6,223 nt of DNA, from the IMG/VR virus record IMGVR_UViG_2529292908_000013, positions 1-6,223 of that record. One strand, 5' to 3'. How positions within the stretch are numbered: position 1 is the first letter of the stretch; every line of letters starts with the position of its first letter. This DNA comes from a virus. Taxonomy: Duplodnaviria > Heunggongvirae > Uroviricota > Caudoviricetes. This document shows, piece by piece, positions 1 through 6,223 of the stretch. The notes beneath the pieces are model-generated. The model was not told where the DNA came from. It worked only from the letters and a program-made list of their open reading frames with translations, and made no database searches. The translations under genes and the position numbers were made by a program.

Positions 1-1101
1 TCAGGCTATATTTCTTGTTATGTTATGCAGCTCAGCTGTAAAAATCAGCTCTCCCTTAGCGAAGGGAGTGCTCCCTCCTGGTTGAGTCATAAAACTTTGT
101 GAGACAGTCGTCCAGCTGTTTGTGTCGCTTTGTACGCCATTCTCTGTAATCGTTGCGCCTTCATGGCTGCCATTTTTCACTTTCCAGGCCAGGCGGTTAT
201 TGGGGGCATCAGCACCGCGGTAAGTGACCGAGGCCATAACGGCCACAACATCACTGTTGCTGTTATCCACCGCACCAAACGTGGCCTGTGCTGCATTCAG
301 GGACGGCGAGAGCATCAGATATCCGGCCTCGCTGTCAGAGGTGTTCAGCCCCGTGACAATATCTTTATTCAGTGAGTTTTTGGCGCTTCCACCGGTAAAT
401 GCCGTTACCGGGCTGTATCTGACCTCAATGCTTCCGAGCAGGGCGGGTTCTGCACTATTATTTCTACCGTATGTCACTGTTCCACAGTACATATCACCCA
501 GCATTAACGTACCGGATGCACCCGATGAAAAAATATTGTCACCACTACCAATACTCACCTGAATTTTGTCAGTCCGGTCATCTGGTACATAAAACGATGT
601 ATTTCCAACTAATGAGCGGTTGCAGTACAGACTGGCTGAGACATAGCCGTTTTCGTTTCGCGTTGCGAAAATTTCATAGTAATAACTGGCTGCTTCATCA
701 GGATACGGGGTTGTAAATGAATAGCCATTAATCCTGATGTGGGATGGCGAAGATGAATATTTCTTTCCCGCACTTAATGTCAGACGAAATCCCAGCTGTA
801 CAGCTGAGGCTTTTAAGTCCGGAAGTGTGCTGTACAGTGTGACATATGAGGATGTCGTGAAAATCAGCCCCGTTCTTTCTACAGTATTTACGGCCTGAGT
901 GCCACGACAGACGGATGTTACAGAACCGGACATATCATTGATAAGCGTGACACCGTTTTCGTTCAGTGCTGAAATAATATTTGTTGAATAATAGTTCTCG
1001 CACAATCCCTCATTCGCCGGAATTTGTCGAAAACTTTCGAGTTTTATAATATTCAAGGTCTGCTTTCCTTTTGTGTCGGTTAATATATTTCTGAATACCA
1101 C
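1..1101 (-). CDS. Hypothetical protein (366 aa by the ORF track), function unknown; candidate accessory (moron) gene or second receptor-binding protein downstream of the tail-fibre assembly gene
   Basis: Uninterrupted 1101-nt ORF, co-directional with the tail operon, with TGA stop at 3..1. The start is uncertain: the ORF opens with GTG at 1101..1099, 11 nt after the tfa stop, with no obvious Shine-Dalgarno. An in-frame TTG at 1056..1054 is preceded by AAGGAAAG and is an alternative start; the first in-frame ATG is codon 57. The protein is Ser/Thr/Gly/Asn/Tyr-rich, with no N-terminal hydrophobic signal, no transmembrane-like stretch, no Walker A motif and 4 Cys. I do not recognise it as any named family. 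G+C hand-counted at 37-45% in three 120-nt samples, versus about 59-62% in the baseplate genes. Confidence 0.65.
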   Translation of the reverse strand: MVFRNILTDTKGKQTLNIIKLESFRQIPANEGLCENYYSTNIISALNENGVTLINDMSGSVTSVCRGTQAVNTVERTGLIFTTSSYVTLYSTLPDLKASAVQLGFRLTLSAGKKYSSSPSHIRINGYSFTTPYPDEAASYYYEIFATRNENGYVSASLYCNRSLVGNTSFYVPDDRTDKIQVSIGSGDNIFSSGASGTLMLGDMYCGTVTYGRNNSAEPALLGSIEVRYSPVTAFTGGSAKNSLNKDIVTGLNTSDSEAGYLMLSPSLNAAQATFGAVDNSNSDVVAVMASVTYRGADAPNNRLAWKVKNGSHEGATITENGVQSDTNSWTTVSQSFMTQPGGSTPFAKGELIFTAELHNITRNIA

Positions 1102-1112
1102 AAAAAGTTAGC

Positions 1113-1631
1113 TCATGGTTTTTGTGGCCATTGAATAAAATCAAAAGACTCCTTATCACTCACATGACTTAAATTCAGAGCCTTCACCTCTTTGATATAC
1201 GCCATCCACTGCATCAGGTGGGCCTTGTCGTCATCACTGATGGTGCCCAGCTCCAGCTCGGTTTTCCAGTCAGATGTGATGTCCTTTGCTTCAGTCAGCA
1301 GATGCTGGCGTTGTTTTTCTGCCAGTTGCGAATAATCAACAGGAACCGGCAGCACTTCGCCGTCTTTGTAATACCAACTGGCTTCAATGCCAAAACCTTC
1401 CGGCAGTTCATCAACTTCCACAATGGTGAAACCTGTCGGATAAAGACGGGACACGTCTTCCGCCATTGAATAAATCACGCCACTTTCAGGGTGAATGCAC
1501 AATTTGTATCTCTTCGTGAATTTGTCCATGGATTCATAAAAATCCTGTCCGTCTTCACTGCGGAAATACTGAATGCCTTCACCATAAGGCATCTCTTTCG
1601 GGTAATAACGCGTGACGTTTCTGAGTTCCAT
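1113..1631 (-). CDS. Phage tail fibre assembly protein (Tfa / Mu U / P2 G-like chaperone), about 172 aa
   Basis: ORF-track ORF 1113..1667; I place the start at ATG 1631..1629 (MELRNVTRYYPKE...) because a canonical AAGGAG (revcomp of 1638..1643) lies 6 nt upstream. The upstream ATG at 1667 would overlap the fibre gene by 22 nt and has no RBS. The C-terminus (...DDDKAHLMQWMAYIKEVKALNLSHVSDKESFDFIQWPQKP) has the acidic/Trp-Pro pattern I recall from lambda Tfa-type chaperones. Position immediately 3' of the fibre gene fits. Confidence 0.8.
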   Translation of the reverse strand: MELRNVTRYYPKEMPYGEGIQYFRSEDGQDFYESMDKFTKRYKLCIHPESGVIYSMAEDVSRLYPTGFTIVEVDELPEGFGIEASWYYKDGEVLPVPVDYSQLAEKQRQHLLTEAKDITSDWKTELELGTISDDDKAHLMQWMAYIKEVKALNLSHVSDKESFDFIQWPQKP

Positions 1632-1645
1632 TATTTTCTCCTTAA

Positions 1646-2449
1646 TTAGCCGGATACCGTGCGCCATCCGCCATTGATATAAATCTGAGTTTGTTTGTAA
1701 TACACGCCGCCGATGTTATCCGCAGAGCTCTTGCCAGTTTCCTGAACGTTAATACCTGACAAAATACAACCTGAAGGCGCGCGAAATACCCAGGAAATTT
1801 CGTTACCACCGGGATTGTGAAACACTTCGCTGGTATACCTGAAATCACGTACTGCACCAGAATCGGTGCTGCTGATAGTGATATCGCTACTGCCATCAAA
1901 CAGCACATTGTTAATCCTGCGGGCCGTCTGAAGCCGGGTTGCCGTTCCGGCGTTGCCGCTGATGTTGTTGATGGTGATATCCGAAGTCAGGGGCATGTTG
2001 TTGACCTTACGCGCTTTTGGCACACCGCTGATGTTATCCAGAAACAATTGTTTATTCGGGATGTCTGCGCCGTTACGGTCTTTTGCCAGTCTGGCGTTTG
2101 CGTTATCCATCGCAATCCTGACCGCTTTTGGTGTAGCCGCTTCTGTTTCTGATTCACTGTTAACAGCACTGTTAAGCCGCACTACGCCTTTTTGCGTCAG
2201 CGATGCATCCGGGACTTTCTGGCCAATAAACGAGGTCAGCGCCTCAACCAGCTGGTTTTGTTTTTCCGGGTCAGGGGTGACGCCAGCCTCTTTAAGGACG
2301 TTAATCACCTCCTGCTGCAAATCACGCGTTGCTGCCTGATGATTATTCATAAATTCAGCAGTAACGATGGTTCCCTCAATTCCCTGAGTCGGGTCACCAT
2401 CATGAAATAACTTATCCGGCGTATTCACCGGGGGCATTAAACTCTGCAT
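1646..2449 (-). CDS. Phage tail fibre protein (267 aa) with a P2 gpH-like conserved collar motif and C-terminus
   Basis: ATG at 2449..2447 preceded by AGGAG (revcomp of 2455..2459) with a 5-nt spacer; TAA stop at 1648..1646. Contains ...DASLTQKGVVRLNSAVNSESETEAATPKAVRIAMDNANARL..., matching the widespread tail-fibre motif I recall from P2 gpH (..SETLAATPKAV..). The C-terminus ...IYINGGWRTVSG resembles the P2 gpH end (..KYINGTWYNVAQV). The 3' half is lower in G+C (about 44% at 1681-1800). Confidence 0.85.
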   Translation of the reverse strand: MQSLMPPVNTPDKLFHDGDPTQGIEGTIVTAEFMNNHQAATRDLQQEVINVLKEAGVTPDPEKQNQLVEALTSFIGQKVPDASLTQKGVVRLNSAVNSESETEAATPKAVRIAMDNANARLAKDRNGADIPNKQLFLDNISGVPKARKVNNMPLTSDITINNISGNAGTATRLQTARRINNVLFDGSSDITISSTDSGAVRDFRYTSEVFHNPGGNEISWVFRAPSGCILSGINVQETGKSSADNIGGVYYKQTQIYINGGWRTVSG

Positions 2450-2495
2450 TATTTCTCCTGTAGTTATTACAAATAAACAACATCAGACCTTTTGT

Positions 2496-3452
2496 TTAAG
2501 GCTCTGTGATAACGGCAAAGTGCAGCCCATTATGGTTAACTACTAATGGGGTACTGCTGTTATTTGCTGTTTGTAAATGTATTTTGTTAATTGTCATCGG
2601 CTCCGTGGTCTGCCTTCCCGACTGCCACTGAACGGTATTAACTGTCAGTGGTTCAATAGTTCGCCGCTCCGACAATAGTTGCATTCTGTTAATCAGCAAT
2701 GGTTCCTGACTCAGGTTTCCCGCCTGAAGCTGCGTATTGTTGATTGTGAGCGGTTTACCTTTCAGTACAGGAATAACTGCAAAATGCATTCCGGCATTAT
2801 TTATCAGCAGAGGCGCATCAGCATGACATACTGACTGAAACTGAATTCTGTTAATTGTCAGTGGTGATACTGGCTCTGGCTGAGATGTGATTTCATAAGT
2901 GAAATAACAGTCTGTAAAAGCTGGTTTAAGGTCTTTAAACGTGTTTTCTAAAATGGATTCACCAAAGGCCGTCAGCGGTTCGCCGGTTGCCGATGCGCCC
3001 GTTCTGAACCGGTAGACAGGTGTTTTTGTCCCGATAACATTGACCTGCCACGCCCAGCGGATTTCTGGTATCAGCAGGCGGTCGCCGCAGCGGTTTATCC
3101 CCACCCGGAATGGTCGCGGCTCCGTAATGGTGATGGTGTAGCCCAGACTGGCGGCAAGGCTTTTGAAGTAAGGGATTGACAGCCCCCCCGTGGCAGCCAT
3201 TTTTACCAGAATGTTCTGACGCCGCTCCTGTTGTGTTGCCCCTTCACGAGGAATAACACCGTACACGCGCTCCCAGTCGGACAGCGTCATCGATGCCTGC
3301 AACGGGGTGATTTGTGTCAGAACGCGCGCCGCTGACGCCTTCACGACTTCCATGACGTCAGCCTCGGCTGTCAGTTCTGCGGAAATATATTTCCCGTTCA
3401 GGTCATAACTGACAGGTGGCAGCATGGCGCGAAATAAATCGACCATATTCAT
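2496..3452 (-). CDS. Baseplate/tail protein of the Mu gp48 / DUF2313 (YmfQ-like) type with an atypical C-terminal extension of seven tandem 17-aa repeats; about 318 aa
   Basis: ORF-track ORF 2496..3488. I place the start at ATG 3452..3450 (MNMVDLFRAMLPP...), 4 nt after the J-like gene's TGA and preceded by GAGGGG; the upstream part of the ORF lies inside the preceding gene. The N-terminal roughly 190 aa resemble gp48/YmfQ-type proteins as I recall them, and the position between the J-like gene and the fibre gene matches Mu/SfV/e14 order. The C-terminal roughly 125 aa are repeats of the form PL(T/L)INxxQ... (see repeat feature). Confidence 0.75.
   Translation of the reverse strand: MNMVDLFRAMLPPVSYDLNGKYISAELTAEADVMEVVKASAARVLTQITPLQASMTLSDWERVYGVIPREGATQQERRQNILVKMAATGGLSIPYFKSLAASLGYTITITEPRPFRVGINRCGDRLLIPEIRWAWQVNVIGTKTPVYRFRTGASATGEPLTAFGESILENTFKDLKPAFTDCYFTYEITSQPEPVSPLTINRIQFQSVCHADAPLLINNAGMHFAVIPVLKGKPLTINNTQLQAGNLSQEPLLINRMQLLSERRTIEPLTVNTVQWQSGRQTTEPMTINKIHLQTANNSSTPLVVNHNGLHFAVITEP
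2499..2879 (-). repeat. In-frame degenerate tandem coding repeats (7 units, 51-nt period, one 60-nt unit) at the 3' end of the gp48-like gene
   Basis: Protein-level repeats start at ORF residues 209, 226, 246, 263, 280, 297 and 314: PLTINRIQFQS.., PLLINNAGMHFAVIPV.., PLTINNTQLQAG.., PLLINRMQLLSE.., PLTVNTVQWQSG.., PMTINKIHLQTA.., PLVVNHNGLHFAVITEP. The corresponding plus-strand cores are a gTTaAttGtcAgtGG-like string recurring at roughly 51-nt spacing between about 2528 and 2850. Confidence 0.75.
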
Positions 3453-3456
3453 AAAA

Positions 3457-4536
3457 TCACCCCTCGCGCGGAAAAGGCTGAATATCAATATTTCCCGGGC
3501 GCAACCATTCCCACGTTGACGCGTTAATAATGGCTTTTACGTTGTCCGCTGGCGTAATGATTCGCCGGTCACTGACACCGGAAATTAATGAAATCTGGGT
3601 TTCCAGTTGTGAAATTATTAATTCCTGCCCCGGCTCCAGCCGGTTCATAAAATCCGTGATAACGTCAGTTATTTGCGGTTTTATCTGCTCAACGGTCAGG
3701 CCGCTGGTTTTTACCCGGACAACGAAATCAACGGCTTTTTTCGTCGGGGCCAGTACCATCGTGTCCTTCGCTGTGACCGGGCGGACTTCCTCAATATGTG
3801 CCAGCACGGCATTAATCAGTTCCTGCGAGGGAAGGTCATTGGCTGACGTAATGGCCACATCAACCGTTCCCAGCCCACGACGCAATGACTCCACATATGC
3901 CGAGGTAACGCCATCCACTTCCAGCGCCCAGCGTTTGTAATCATATTTGTTACCGCCAGCGGGCGGCCTGCGCAGAATATCCAGATAACGCGCCAGCAGG
4001 TCGGCGTCACTTTCCCTGTCCGTTCCGCCGGTCAGGGATTTAATCGTCACCGTGCTGTTGATGCCTTCCGGCGGACTGACCAGCGTTGCCGTCTGCGTTG
4101 TGGATGCGTTCGTATGTGCGCCCGTGGTGGTGCTTTTTGCCGTCACCTCCGCGCTGCCTTCATCACCGATGGTGCAGTCTGCGGTGGTGGCCACGCTGAC
4201 ACCTTCACCACGAATTTCCGCACCGGCTGGCAGCATCTTACCGGGTGTACCGGTAATCACTGCCGGGCCGGATGAGGCCGTTGCTTTTTTACGAAAAACA
4301 TTGCGCGCGCGGCAGTGCAGCTCCAGATATTCAGGGTCTGCCGTGTCAGGAAACACCTGACGGAGTATCCACCCCTGATGCATATAAAGCCCGTCAGCCA
4401 CGCCAGATACGGCATTTGCACGAATGCGGTAATCGCTGTCAGCGCCGGTGTCGATGGTTTCTCCCGGCAGGGCGTTAGCGATATCACGTAGCTGGCGTTC
4501 TGTGTTTTCAGCAACGCCCGGAACTGGAAACGGCAT
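3457..4536 (-). CDS. Baseplate J-like protein (Mu gp47 / P2 gpJ family), 359 aa
   Basis: ATG at 4536..4534 overlaps the upstream gene's TAA by 1 nt (TAATG), with GAGGA about 9 nt upstream. Length and the C-terminal half (...YDYKRWALEVDGVTSAYVESLRRGLGTVDVAITSAN...) fit baseplate J-type wedge proteins as I recall them. Gene order fits. Confidence 0.85.
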   Translation of the reverse strand: MPFPVPGVAENTERQLRDIANALPGETIDTGADSDYRIRANAVSGVADGLYMHQGWILRQVFPDTADPEYLELHCRARNVFRKKATASSGPAVITGTPGKMLPAGAEIRGEGVSVATTADCTIGDEGSAEVTAKSTTTGAHTNASTTQTATLVSPPEGINSTVTIKSLTGGTDRESDADLLARYLDILRRPPAGGNKYDYKRWALEVDGVTSAYVESLRRGLGTVDVAITSANDLPSQELINAVLAHIEEVRPVTAKDTMVLAPTKKAVDFVVRVKTSGLTVEQIKPQITDVITDFMNRLEPGQELIISQLETQISLISGVSDRRIITPADNVKAIINASTWEWLRPGNIDIQPFPREG

Positions 4537-4886
4537 TACATAATCCTCACAGGGTGTTCAAACGTCTGCGGTGTGCCCGCGTTATCCGTGACGGTGATTA
4601 ACAGCAACAACCAGCCGCGCTGGCCCGCTTTCGTGTCAACGGTAATGGATTTTGCCCGCCCGTCATCAAGCAGGGGCTGAAGCGCCTGACTGGCATACTG
4701 CGCCGCCAGCCTGTGAACACGGGAAACGTCTTTTTCCCGCTTCAGTTCGTGCAGGCGTGACCCCAGCGACGCATCCGCCCAGTAACTGCCAAGCGGCGTC
4801 GCCAGTCGCAGATAAACCGCGTTATGAAGTGTATAAATCCGGCGGCGTTCGTAGTCGCCGGTTGCAGGTGAAATCGTCTGGTCCAT
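4536..4886 (-). CDS. Small baseplate protein, Mu gp46-like (P2 gpW / T4 gp25-type position), 116 aa
   Basis: ATG at 4886..4884 and TAA at 4538..4536, translationally coupled to the J-like gene. Size and position between the spike (V-like) and J-like genes are as in Mu-type baseplate modules. The sequence identification itself is weak; the call rests mainly on synteny. Confidence 0.7.
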   Translation of the reverse strand: MDQTISPATGDYERRRIYTLHNAVYLRLATPLGSYWADASLGSRLHELKREKDVSRVHRLAAQYASQALQPLLDDGRAKSITVDTKAGQRGWLLLLITVTDNAGTPQTFEHPVRIM

Positions 4887-4939
4887 GCCGCCAGTCTGGC
4901 AGCATGGACAGGTCAGAATCAGGTGAGGGTGTTCAGCAC

Positions 4940-5593
4940 TTAATTAACCGGCGTGTCAGACATGCCGTGTGGGGTCGGGTGTTTGTGCGTTCCGATTTTA
5001 ATGCCATTAATGGTGACGTCAACGGAGGTAATCACACCACCCACATGGTTGATGTTGCCTTCAAAGGTGGCGGCATATTTCTTGCCCCCACTGATGGCCA
5101 TGCCACCACTGCCGGTGATTTTACCTTCCACTGTCAGCTTATCGCTGGCCGTCAGTAACGGTGTCGTGAATGCGGCGTTCTCCTCTGCCTCAACCTCATA
5201 GCGTTTGCATTTCACCCGGTAAACGTCACATTCGGTTTCAACAATCCGCCCGCGCTTCAGTACGATTTTCGCGCCTTCATCGGTATACAGGGCCACCTCG
5301 CCGGGTTTCAGTTCCGTCAGGCGATATGCGCCGTGCTCTGTGGCCACGATGACGGTATGGGAGGTATTACCGTTCAGCGGAACGGCAATACCCATAGAGC
5401 CGGGCGGCGGGGATGTGGTGAGGCCGTAATGCTGAAAATACTCCGCACCGTCCAGCTGCTCGCCTGCCAGCCCGTTCAGCTGGAGAAGCTGTACTTTGGT
5501 CGAACTGTCCACCGTACCGGTCACCACCCTGAATGCCTGGCGAACGGTGGCCAGTGCCTGCTGTATGCGCTGATTAACCTTGTCCCACATCAT
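4940..5593 (-). CDS. Baseplate spike / assembly protein V-like (Mu gp45 / P2 gpV family), 216-217 aa
   Basis: Tandem ATG ATG at 5593..5588; GGGAGAA lies 2 nt before the first ATG and 5 nt before the second, so 5590 may be the true start. TAA stop at 4942..4940. N-terminal OB-like region followed by a Gly-rich C-terminus ending ...INGIKIGTHKHPTPHGMSDTPVN, which resembles the P2 gpV C-terminal apex (..HTHKHPGDSGGTTG..) as I recall it. Confidence 0.85.
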   Translation of the reverse strand: MMWDKVNQRIQQALATVRQAFRVVTGTVDSSTKVQLLQLNGLAGEQLDGAEYFQHYGLTTSPPPGSMGIAVPLNGNTSHTVIVATEHGAYRLTELKPGEVALYTDEGAKIVLKRGRIVETECDVYRVKCKRYEVEAEENAAFTTPLLTASDKLTVEGKITGSGGMAISGGKKYAATFEGNINHVGGVITSVDVTINGIKIGTHKHPTPHGMSDTPVN

Positions 5594-5991
5594 TTCTCCC
5601 AGACCTTAACAATGGCGACCTCTTTTTCTTTTTGCCCCTGCGGTGATGGCGTTTCTTCTCACGCGGGAAGGCGTCAGGTATCCACACGCCGTCCTCCTTA
5701 AAGCGAAGCCGGGTTGTCTGCCCGTTCCGGCCTCCGCTGAACTCACGCCCCATCAGGAAAAAGATGGCATCAATGCCGTGGAGTTCGCTGACAATCCGCA
5801 CACGCTGGCCGGGCTGCCACAGGACACCGTCCGCCGTGCGATGGCCTGCAACCAGTGCAACGATATCCAGCCCCGACAGACGGGCATCACTCATCATTTT
5901 TTTTGCGCGCCAGTTCACCTGCTCCATGTTACTGGTGTCGCCCTGGGTGATTATCTGCGGGCGGTAATAATCCACGGTGGGGTCGGTGGCC
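5574..5991 (-). pseudogene. 3' fragment of a baseplate hub gene (Mu gp44/P, P2 gpD-like 'late control D' family), interrupted at its 5' side by IS186
   Basis: The reading frame is open from the IS186 junction (5991) to a stop at 5576..5574 and overlaps the V-like gene start by 20 nt. The ORF track begins it at GTG 5975, but the frame stays open upstream into the IS inverted repeat until a TAG at 6002..6000. This is about 138 codons where hub proteins of this family are about 380 aa as I recall. The gene immediately upstream of the spike gene in Mu-type modules is the hub. Confidence 0.6.
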
Positions 5992-6014
5992 CATAAGCGC
6001 TAACTTAAGGGTTG
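5992..6014 (+). repeat. IS186 terminal inverted repeat (IRL), 23 bp
   Basis: CATAAGCGCTAACTTAAGGGTTG lies directly at the point where the phage hub-gene frame is broken. The exact outermost base (5991 versus 5992) cannot be fixed without the other end of the element. Confidence 0.8.
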
Positions 6015-6046
6015 TGGTATTACGCCTGATATGATTTAACGTGCCG

Positions 6047-6223
6047 ATGAATTACTCTCACGATAACTGGTCAGCAATTCTGGCCCATATTGGTAAGCCC
6101 GAAGAACTGGATACTTCGGCACGTAATGCCGGGGCTCTAACCCGCCGCCGCGAAATTCGTGATGCTGCAACTCTGCTACGTCTGGGGCTGGCTTACGGCC
6201 CCGGGGGGATTGTCATTACGTGA
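6047..6223 (+). CDS. insL: IS186 transposase InsL, N-terminal portion; reading frame terminates at 6221..6223, apparently through a +1 frameshift
   Basis: ATG at 6047 (the ORF track starts at an upstream in-frame GTG at 6041). The translation matches the InsL N-terminus through ...LAYGPGG, then reads IVIT-stop. The canonical protein as I recall it continues MSLREVTAW..., which is what GTCATTACGTGA would encode in the -1 frame. This implies one extra T at about 6210/6211. Confidence 0.8.
   Translation: MNYSHDNWSAILAHIGKPEELDTSARNAGALTRRREIRDAATLLRLGLAYGPGGIVIT

Follow-up and report, generated by a model that had tools for sequence, protein, structure and literature searches.

A 17-residue tandem-repeat module on a gp48-type baseplate wedge protein of a Mu-like Escherichia coli prophage and its strict co-occurrence with a predicted lectin-fold protein

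The window analysed here, a stretch of 6,223 nucleotides from IMG/VR record IMGVR_UViG_2529292908_000013, holds the distal tail module of a Mu-like Escherichia coli prophage, in which every gene lies on the minus strand. One of these genes encodes a gp48/YmfQ-type baseplate wedge protein that ends in seven tandem repeats with a period of 17 residues. Our analysis revealed that this repeat module is maintained as a protein by purifying selection, that it reached the window gene as an in-frame insert, that it is found on several unrelated carrier proteins, and that it strictly co-occurs with the gene of a separate protein (hereafter the partner) predicted to adopt a lectin/glucanase-like fold. 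We lean towards the interpretation that the repeats serve as a portable docking adaptor, through which gp48 would carry the separate lectin-fold protein of about 350 residues beside the ordinary tail fibre.

The repeat module and its gp48 carrier

The extension starts with the linker ITSQPEPVS and continues with seven units of 17, 20, 17, 17, 17, 17 and 17 residues, giving 122 repeat residues before the stop codon at 2496-2498. The self-identity of the sequence peaks at a lag of 17 with 28 matches, above the maximum of 21 reached at any lag from 5 to 39 in 10,000 shuffles, which confirms the seven units at a 17-residue period with one 20-residue unit described in the original prediction. The span of 2499-2879 given there covers all seven units and also takes in 15 nt of the linker. 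Two types of unit were distinguished, PLxINxxQLQ(S/T)G (units 1 and 3-6) and PLxxNxxG(M/L)HFAVI (units 2 and 7), the latter being the pair of units in which the G(M/L)HFAVI variant had already been recognized. Based on 42 ordinary units, the consensus is P-L-(V/T)-I-N-R-x-Q-L-Q-(S/T)-G, and the final unit of every module reads P-L-x-(I/V)-N-x-x-G-L-(H/S)-F-A-V-V. The 17-residue period fits one coil of a beta-solenoid (15-20 residues), a fold that the repeats may adopt. The AlphaFold2 (AF2) model of gp48, made from the single sequence since too few homologues are available for a deep alignment, has a predicted local distance difference test score (pLDDT) of 41, about 40 in the repeats, and places short hairpin-like paired strands in each unit.

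At the nucleotide level, the units of the window share 47% identity, different codons are used in 61% of the identical residue pairs, and Tandem Repeats Finder reported no array in the window DNA. The repeat is therefore old and maintained as protein rather than as DNA, and it is no recent product of slippage; the earlier view of a slippage-prone array does not hold for units so diverged. Furthermore, the ratio of nonsynonymous to synonymous substitution rates (dN/dS) of the module between lineages is 0.27-0.34, and purifying selection thus acts on the module as a protein. DNA-level accounts of the repeat, namely a CRISPR-like array, protein-binding iterons or a slippage repeat, were rejected on the basis of the missing array, the 47% identity, the synonymous differences and a dN/dS of about 0.3.

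The open frame of gp48 (2496..3488, minus strand) is intact, with a TTG at 3488 as its upstream limit. The start is likely the ATG at 3452, in agreement with RefSeq, which gives a protein of 318 residues. PF10076 (Phage_Mu_Gp48) matches residues 21-199 of the open reading frame (ORF) with 104.4 bits against a gathering cutoff of 37.4, the protein matches phrog_203 ('baseplate wedge subunit') at 2.5e-68, and chain a of the Mu gp48 structure 9ki1 matches it with an E-value of 1.9e-7, residues 22-185 of the query corresponding to residues 28-175 of the 180 in the chain. The gene directly follows Baseplate_J and precedes the fibre and tail fibre assembly (Tfa) genes. The N-terminal part is thus a gp48/DUF2313 wedge protein, as first proposed, and this core should hold an equivalent of the fibre-docking loop of Mu. 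The overall architecture is a variant: where members of the family typically consist of a single domain of ~180-200 residues, the window protein continues for 130 residues beyond ...FTYE, and the solved Mu gp48 finishes 5 residues past the point at which the extension starts. The extension was therefore rightly considered atypical of the family.

The origin of the extension can be read from the closest relatives, STEC308 and STEC313, which share 95-96% DNA identity with the window over the core and encode a YmfQ of 190 residues. In both, gp48 ends with ...FTYEVEE and a TAA stop codon that overlaps the ATG of the fibre gene. Compared with them, the window carries ~430 bp extra (roughly 2459-2892), which supply the linker, the units and the stop in frame, and the 46-nt spacer after the module stop gives the fibre gene a new Shine-Dalgarno sequence. 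A lost stop codon or a fusion of two adjacent genes was rejected as the source of the extension, because in the relatives the fibre gene, and no repeat ORF, directly follows the gp48 stop; the concern that the extension might be such an artefact is thereby removed. Elsewhere, a small gene of its own encodes the module (cluster P0013, see below), and gene fusion therefore belongs to its history without being an artefact in the window.

Distribution of the module and pairing with the partner gene

Each of the 45 loci collected for containing the start of the partner gene also has the module (45/45); a contig scan added one locus only (E. albertii) to this set. At 42 of these loci, the ORF ending 12-30 nt upstream of the partner terminates in the module. 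The remaining three belong to the window-type prophage, in which gp48 carries the module and is found in the same operon, 1.4 kb upstream, with the fibre and Tfa genes between; a fibre in this place was seen in the window prophage type only. The 8-mer ACAAAAGG is present on the minus strand at 2488-2495, after the module stop, and at 1068-1075 in the partner leader, which weakly hints that a block of fibre and Tfa genes may have been inserted between formerly adjacent genes. In two other gp48 lineages (loci L004 and L006), a partner of ~350 residues follows 23 nt after the module and is 97% identical to the product of window ORF 1..1056, and the partners of other carriers are 40% to 97% identical to the window protein. 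Among complete E. coli genomes, the module is also present in all 60 listed partner-bearing records (60/60), and the module without the partner was found only in two degraded remnants with a truncated module. One locus of this kind, the sole kind with module and without partner, is a degraded Mu-like prophage of E. coli E94 (L005, 5681-6732), in which the module is cut off midway and runs, through a deletion, into a truncated mom gene. The most distant partner, at 40% identity, lies in a lambdoid prophage (L017, 4794-6080). Upstream of it is a 64-residue ORF ending ...PLVIKHAVVSVGHENVLPVLTGRTWLTYLIQN, separate from a 257-residue protein with an Stf N-terminus farther upstream, and this ORF may preserve two degenerate units left over from a module.

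The module is rare yet portable. Among 5,426 complete E. coli genomes, only 7 have the window type, and their copies are 100% identical; about 57 further genomes carry the module on two other gp48 lineages (the L004 type and the B7A/ETEC type L006, ETEC standing for enterotoxigenic E. coli). A word-indexed protein search returned one fragment only for the extension and 4 short fragments only for the module profile, and about nine genuine module clusters were identified when 1.84 billion representatives were searched exhaustively with HMMER. These comprise the fourth of the gp48 lineages, which has an additional domain in the middle (P0005), carriers with a lambda-Stf-type N-terminal domain (PF08400; P0006 and P0007), a carrier whose N-terminus is of the P2 fibre type (PF12571; P0009), a fibre fragment (P0003), a stand-alone protein of 133 residues (P0013) and three short fragments (P0001, P0004 and P0012). 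Four further matches to repetitive proteins of 2-3.6 thousand residues (P0002, P0008, P0010 and P0011) were judged on inspection to be spurious and of low complexity. The cores of the four gp48 lineages share a mutual identity of about 35% or less, and the fibre-type carriers end just past shaft and module, with no distal receptor-binding domain. The copy number differs between lineages, with 4, 5, 6 or 7 units, as had been anticipated, and is invariant within the window type. Only in the P0005 lineage are near-identical units found, in 4 versus 5 copies (L036, L037 and L038, IMG/VR prophage contigs; PLVINSAMLQSGYLTQE twice, or PLVINRVMLQSGRMTQE twice), so gain, loss and conversion of units are ongoing there, unlike in the window type. 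Another setting is provided by a T-even-like contig (L014, 6001-7463) with a gp37-like fibre bearing Peptidase_S74 and two Gp38_N proteins, on which the free 133-residue module is followed by a partner homologue with 43% identity to the window protein; the pair therefore extends beyond temperate Mu-like or lambdoid phages.

No Pfam family matches the partner at E<=0.01, and the family to which it belongs, phrog_8291, is listed as of unknown function. Clustering at 90% identity divides this family into 27 clusters, nearly all of them from E. coli and often from ETEC strains. AF2 with a 25-sequence alignment yielded a pLDDT of 88.5 and a predicted template modelling score (pTM) of 0.86, confidently predicting two concanavalin A (ConA)-like lectin/glucanase jelly-roll domains. 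The modelled beta-sandwich superposes on members of the ConA-like superfamily at a sequence identity of 5-13%. Over its full length, the model matches proteins of ~350 residues from Achromobacter, Serratia, Providencia and Cronobacter phages in the BFVD database with TM scores of 0.60-0.65, one of which is annotated as 'virion structural protein'. Based on the predicted fold and this annotated match, the partner most likely belongs to the virion and either binds or cleaves a glycan. Membership in the T2/S16 Gp38 adhesins was rejected, as neither a Gp38_N nor a GP38 Pfam match was found and the predicted fold is ConA-like. The N-terminal 13 residues of the partner (MNIIKLESFRQIP) are strongly conserved. 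An E. coli genome with partner genes holds them at a median of 2 places and up to 5, many partner-bearing strains are ETEC isolates (B7A, ETEC6, E2528-C1), and strains like RIVM_C036569 hold both window-type and L004-type prophages, which gives an opportunity for exchange.

A docking role for the module and its alternatives

The docking proposal draws on the genomic pairing and on the analogy with type VI secretion systems (T6SS). In phage Mu, gp48 is peripheral on the baseplate, present once per wedge, and anchors the fibre via a docking loop of its core (PMC11915804). In the T6SS, TssG has two loops that each anchor one TssK trimer, and hydrophobic residues enter a cavity of the TssK N-terminal 15 residues (PMC6300606). 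By comparison, the ordinary fibre of the window prophage would dock on the core loop of gp48 and the C-terminal module would carry the partner, so that with one gp48 per wedge and six per baseplate, each wedge would present two host-recognition devices. The contact would likely be formed between the hydrophobic G-L-H-F-A-V strand or strands of units 2 and 7 and the partner N-terminus MNIIKLESFRQIP, and the five QLQ-type units may form a beta-rich stalk or a further binding surface. GxHFAV strands are found twice on the gp48 carrier and once at the end of every carrier. The carriers are heterogeneous and alike only in their ability to anchor to the tail, as expected of a portable adaptor. A docking role is also favoured by the fibre-type carriers, which bear no receptor-binding domain past shaft and module, and by the purifying selection on the module as a protein. 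In addition, partner residues 5 and 8-10 covary with the type of the last module unit, and they do so in the window as well, whose two genes are apart. A bolder form of the proposal, which we find conceivable without leaning towards it, regards the array as a previously undescribed universal plug that would recruit one lectin-fold family to any tail part, with the two GxHFAV units holding two copies or oligomers per wedge, as a phage counterpart of TssG-TssK that would give a Mu-type baseplate dual receptors.

Several observations weigh against a docking role. In a tblastn search of extension and partner, neither part was matched in any cultured phage among the 50,697 phage records of INPHARED, so that virion production by these prophages can only be presumed, and an insertion sequence interrupts the hub gene of the window copy. 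Conservation is fairly even along the partner, with no hypervariable distal C-terminal tip as in many receptor-binding proteins. One module would have to serve a monomeric gp48 and presumably trimeric fibre stubs. The covariation of partner residues with the last module unit is confounded by physical linkage. Finally, partners that are 96-97% identical adjoin modules only about 45% identical to each other, so either the consensus motif alone matters or there is no specific contact.

The best surviving alternative, which we nevertheless hold to be improbable, takes the module itself as a distal host-contacting beta-rich tip or stalk and the partner as its folding or assembly factor, perhaps staying bound, as Tfa/gp38-type proteins do. 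The order of a structural gene and then a helper resembles fibre-chaperone pairs, the partner follows the module at 12-30 nt, and nothing lies distal to the module in fibre-type carriers. However, the partner is predicted to have a lectin/glucanase-like fold and resembles a 'virion structural protein', unlike known fibre chaperones, and a Caudo_TAP chaperone is already encoded at the loci. The surface residues of the module (PLxINRxQLQSG) are conserved, whereas diversity would be expected at a receptor-binding tip. The constant link to one lectin-fold protein argues for a holder, and the earlier suggestion of the module as a host-contact element in its own right is accordingly disfavoured.

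Still less probable is a merely genetic co-occurrence, with the module acting as a recombination joint for host-range cassettes (the partner with or without the fibre) and as a neutral spacer on gp48. Such a joint should conserve DNA, whereas here the DNA has diverged (synonymous divergence, dS, about 1.6) with the protein motif kept (dN/dS about 0.27), and the module stays in frame in every carrier, even where it stands alone. These features count against a reading that would otherwise be suggested by the mosaicism of the lineages (units 3-7 of L004 and L006 are identical, whereas units 1-2 and the gp48 cores are not), by very different modules preceding the same partner, and by the ACAAAAGG 8-mer, which is shared between the partner leader and the DNA following the module stop in the window.

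The remaining alternative, a damaged pseudogene whose extension is untranslated junk after an insertion, follows the annotation of NZ_CP086627 and B7A by the Prokaryotic Genome Annotation Pipeline (PGAP) and the absence of the insert from the closest relatives, but is effectively refuted by conservation, since no stop interrupts the 122 repeat residues before the one just ahead of the new ribosome-binding site of the fibre, other lineages share the architecture at 47% identity and a dN/dS of about 0.3, and PGAP annotates the 324-residue gp48 form of NZ_CP087377 as an intact protein. In RefSeq, the window-type gene (NZ_CP086627) and that of B7A are called pseudogenes ('YmfQ family protein, incomplete, missing C-terminus') and the repeat DNA is left blank. 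This call is a systematic annotation error stemming from the unusual extension, as indicated by the seven-unit architecture at 47% identity on other gp48 cores, the dN/dS of 0.27-0.34 and the intact form in NZ_CP087377. Blank or pseudogene stretches were noted at window 2496-2888, L001 8051-8489 and L006 7001-7375, and in 35 ETEC-type genomes no feature at all is annotated under the module.

Window layout, related systems and significance

Positions 1-5991 of the window are 99.6% identical to the dtpB-adjacent prophage of E. coli RIVM_C036569. From 5992 onwards (window 5992-6223), an IS4-like IS421 (IS186-family) element splits the gpP/gp44 hub gene, and the prophage copy in the window therefore cannot make a baseplate alone; the hub gene is unbroken in NZ_CP086627. 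The features are listed in Table 1.

Table 1 Features of the window, with positions counted from its first letter.
Feature	Position	Strand	Basis
Hub protein gpP/gp44, C-terminal part	5574..5975	-	
gp45	4940..5593	-	
gp46	4536..4886	-	
Baseplate_J / gp47 (BW2), wedge partner of gp48	3457..4536	-	Pfam
gp48/YmfQ-type baseplate wedge protein (BW3) with C-terminal repeat module, 318 residues	2496..3452	-	
gp48 core	2892..3452	-	
Insert of ~430 bp: linker, seven repeats, stop codon, 46-nt spacer	2459..2892	-	alignment with STEC308/STEC313
Seven tandem units	2499..2864	-	
Unit 1, 17 residues	2814-2864	-	
Unit 2, 20 residues	2754-2813	-	
Unit 3, 17 residues	2703-2753	-	
Unit 4, 17 residues	2652-2702	-	
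Unit 5, 17 residues	2601-2651	-	
Unit 6, 17 residues	2550-2600	-	
Unit 7, 17 residues	2499-2549	-	
Tail fibre, 267 residues	1646..2449	-	Phage_fiber_2, phrog_1833
Tail fibre assembly protein (Caudo_TAP), start per RefSeq	1113..1631	-	Pfam
Partner protein, 351 residues, TTG start	1..1056	-	phrog_8291, without Pfam family

That phages attach separately encoded receptor-binding proteins through adaptors is well known, and the window can be compared with several such systems. Its ~190 N-terminal gp48 residues are a bona fide member of the family of Mu gp48 (BW3), P2 gpI and E. coli e14 YmfQ (PF10076), and the order gp45-gp46-gp47-gp48-fibre-Tfa is common to Mu and the window. In contrast, Mu gp48 (180 residues) and the nearest relatives (190 residues) are without the 130-residue repeat extension. 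The likeness to TssG, a gp48/gp7 homologue, would consist in a wedge protein of the same family acting as adaptor, with the two hydrophobic GxHFAV units of the window protein as the putative anchors. The highly conserved N-terminal 13 residues of the partner may likewise recall the N-terminal ~15 residues by which TssK is anchored. However, the anchors of TssG are loops inside its C-terminal domain, whereas the window protein has a tandem-repeat tail whose binding is hypothetical, and TssK has a shoulder/neck/head fold, whereas the partner is predicted to consist of ConA-like jelly-rolls; sequence similarity is absent. With tip adhesins (T2/S16 gp38 on gp37, and G7C/CBA120-type adaptors), the system shares a receptor protein that is encoded just downstream and thought to be attached to the C-terminus of its carrier, in a modular arrangement swapped between phages. 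Unlike gp38 and the T4 gp10-like adaptor domains, to which no homology exists, the carrier can be a wedge protein and the docking element is a 17-residue tandem repeat. The ConA-like superfamily, which includes carbohydrate-binding modules, legume lectins, polysaccharide lyases of families PL7, PL14 and PL36 and the HCN domain of botulinum neurotoxin, shares 5-13% identity with the partner and concerns the partner rather than the repeats.

Searches of Pfam, PHROGs, the Protein Data Bank (PDB) and the searchable literature on YmfQ, gp48 extensions and adaptors yielded no description of the module. What is new here is the 17-residue tandem-repeat module with its proposed docking role, its fusion to gp48, and its strict pairing with an uncharacterised lectin-fold family. 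The annotation of both parts can be improved, since extended gp48 genes are called pseudogenes and the phrog_8291 family is without an assigned function. If the docking tag is true, one insertion of 430 bp would equip a minimal Mu-type baseplate with a second receptor-binding activity, in a phage-side parallel to TssG holding TssK. A tag that recruits a lectin-fold protein to varied scaffolds would also serve in the design of phages and tailocins with an altered host range.
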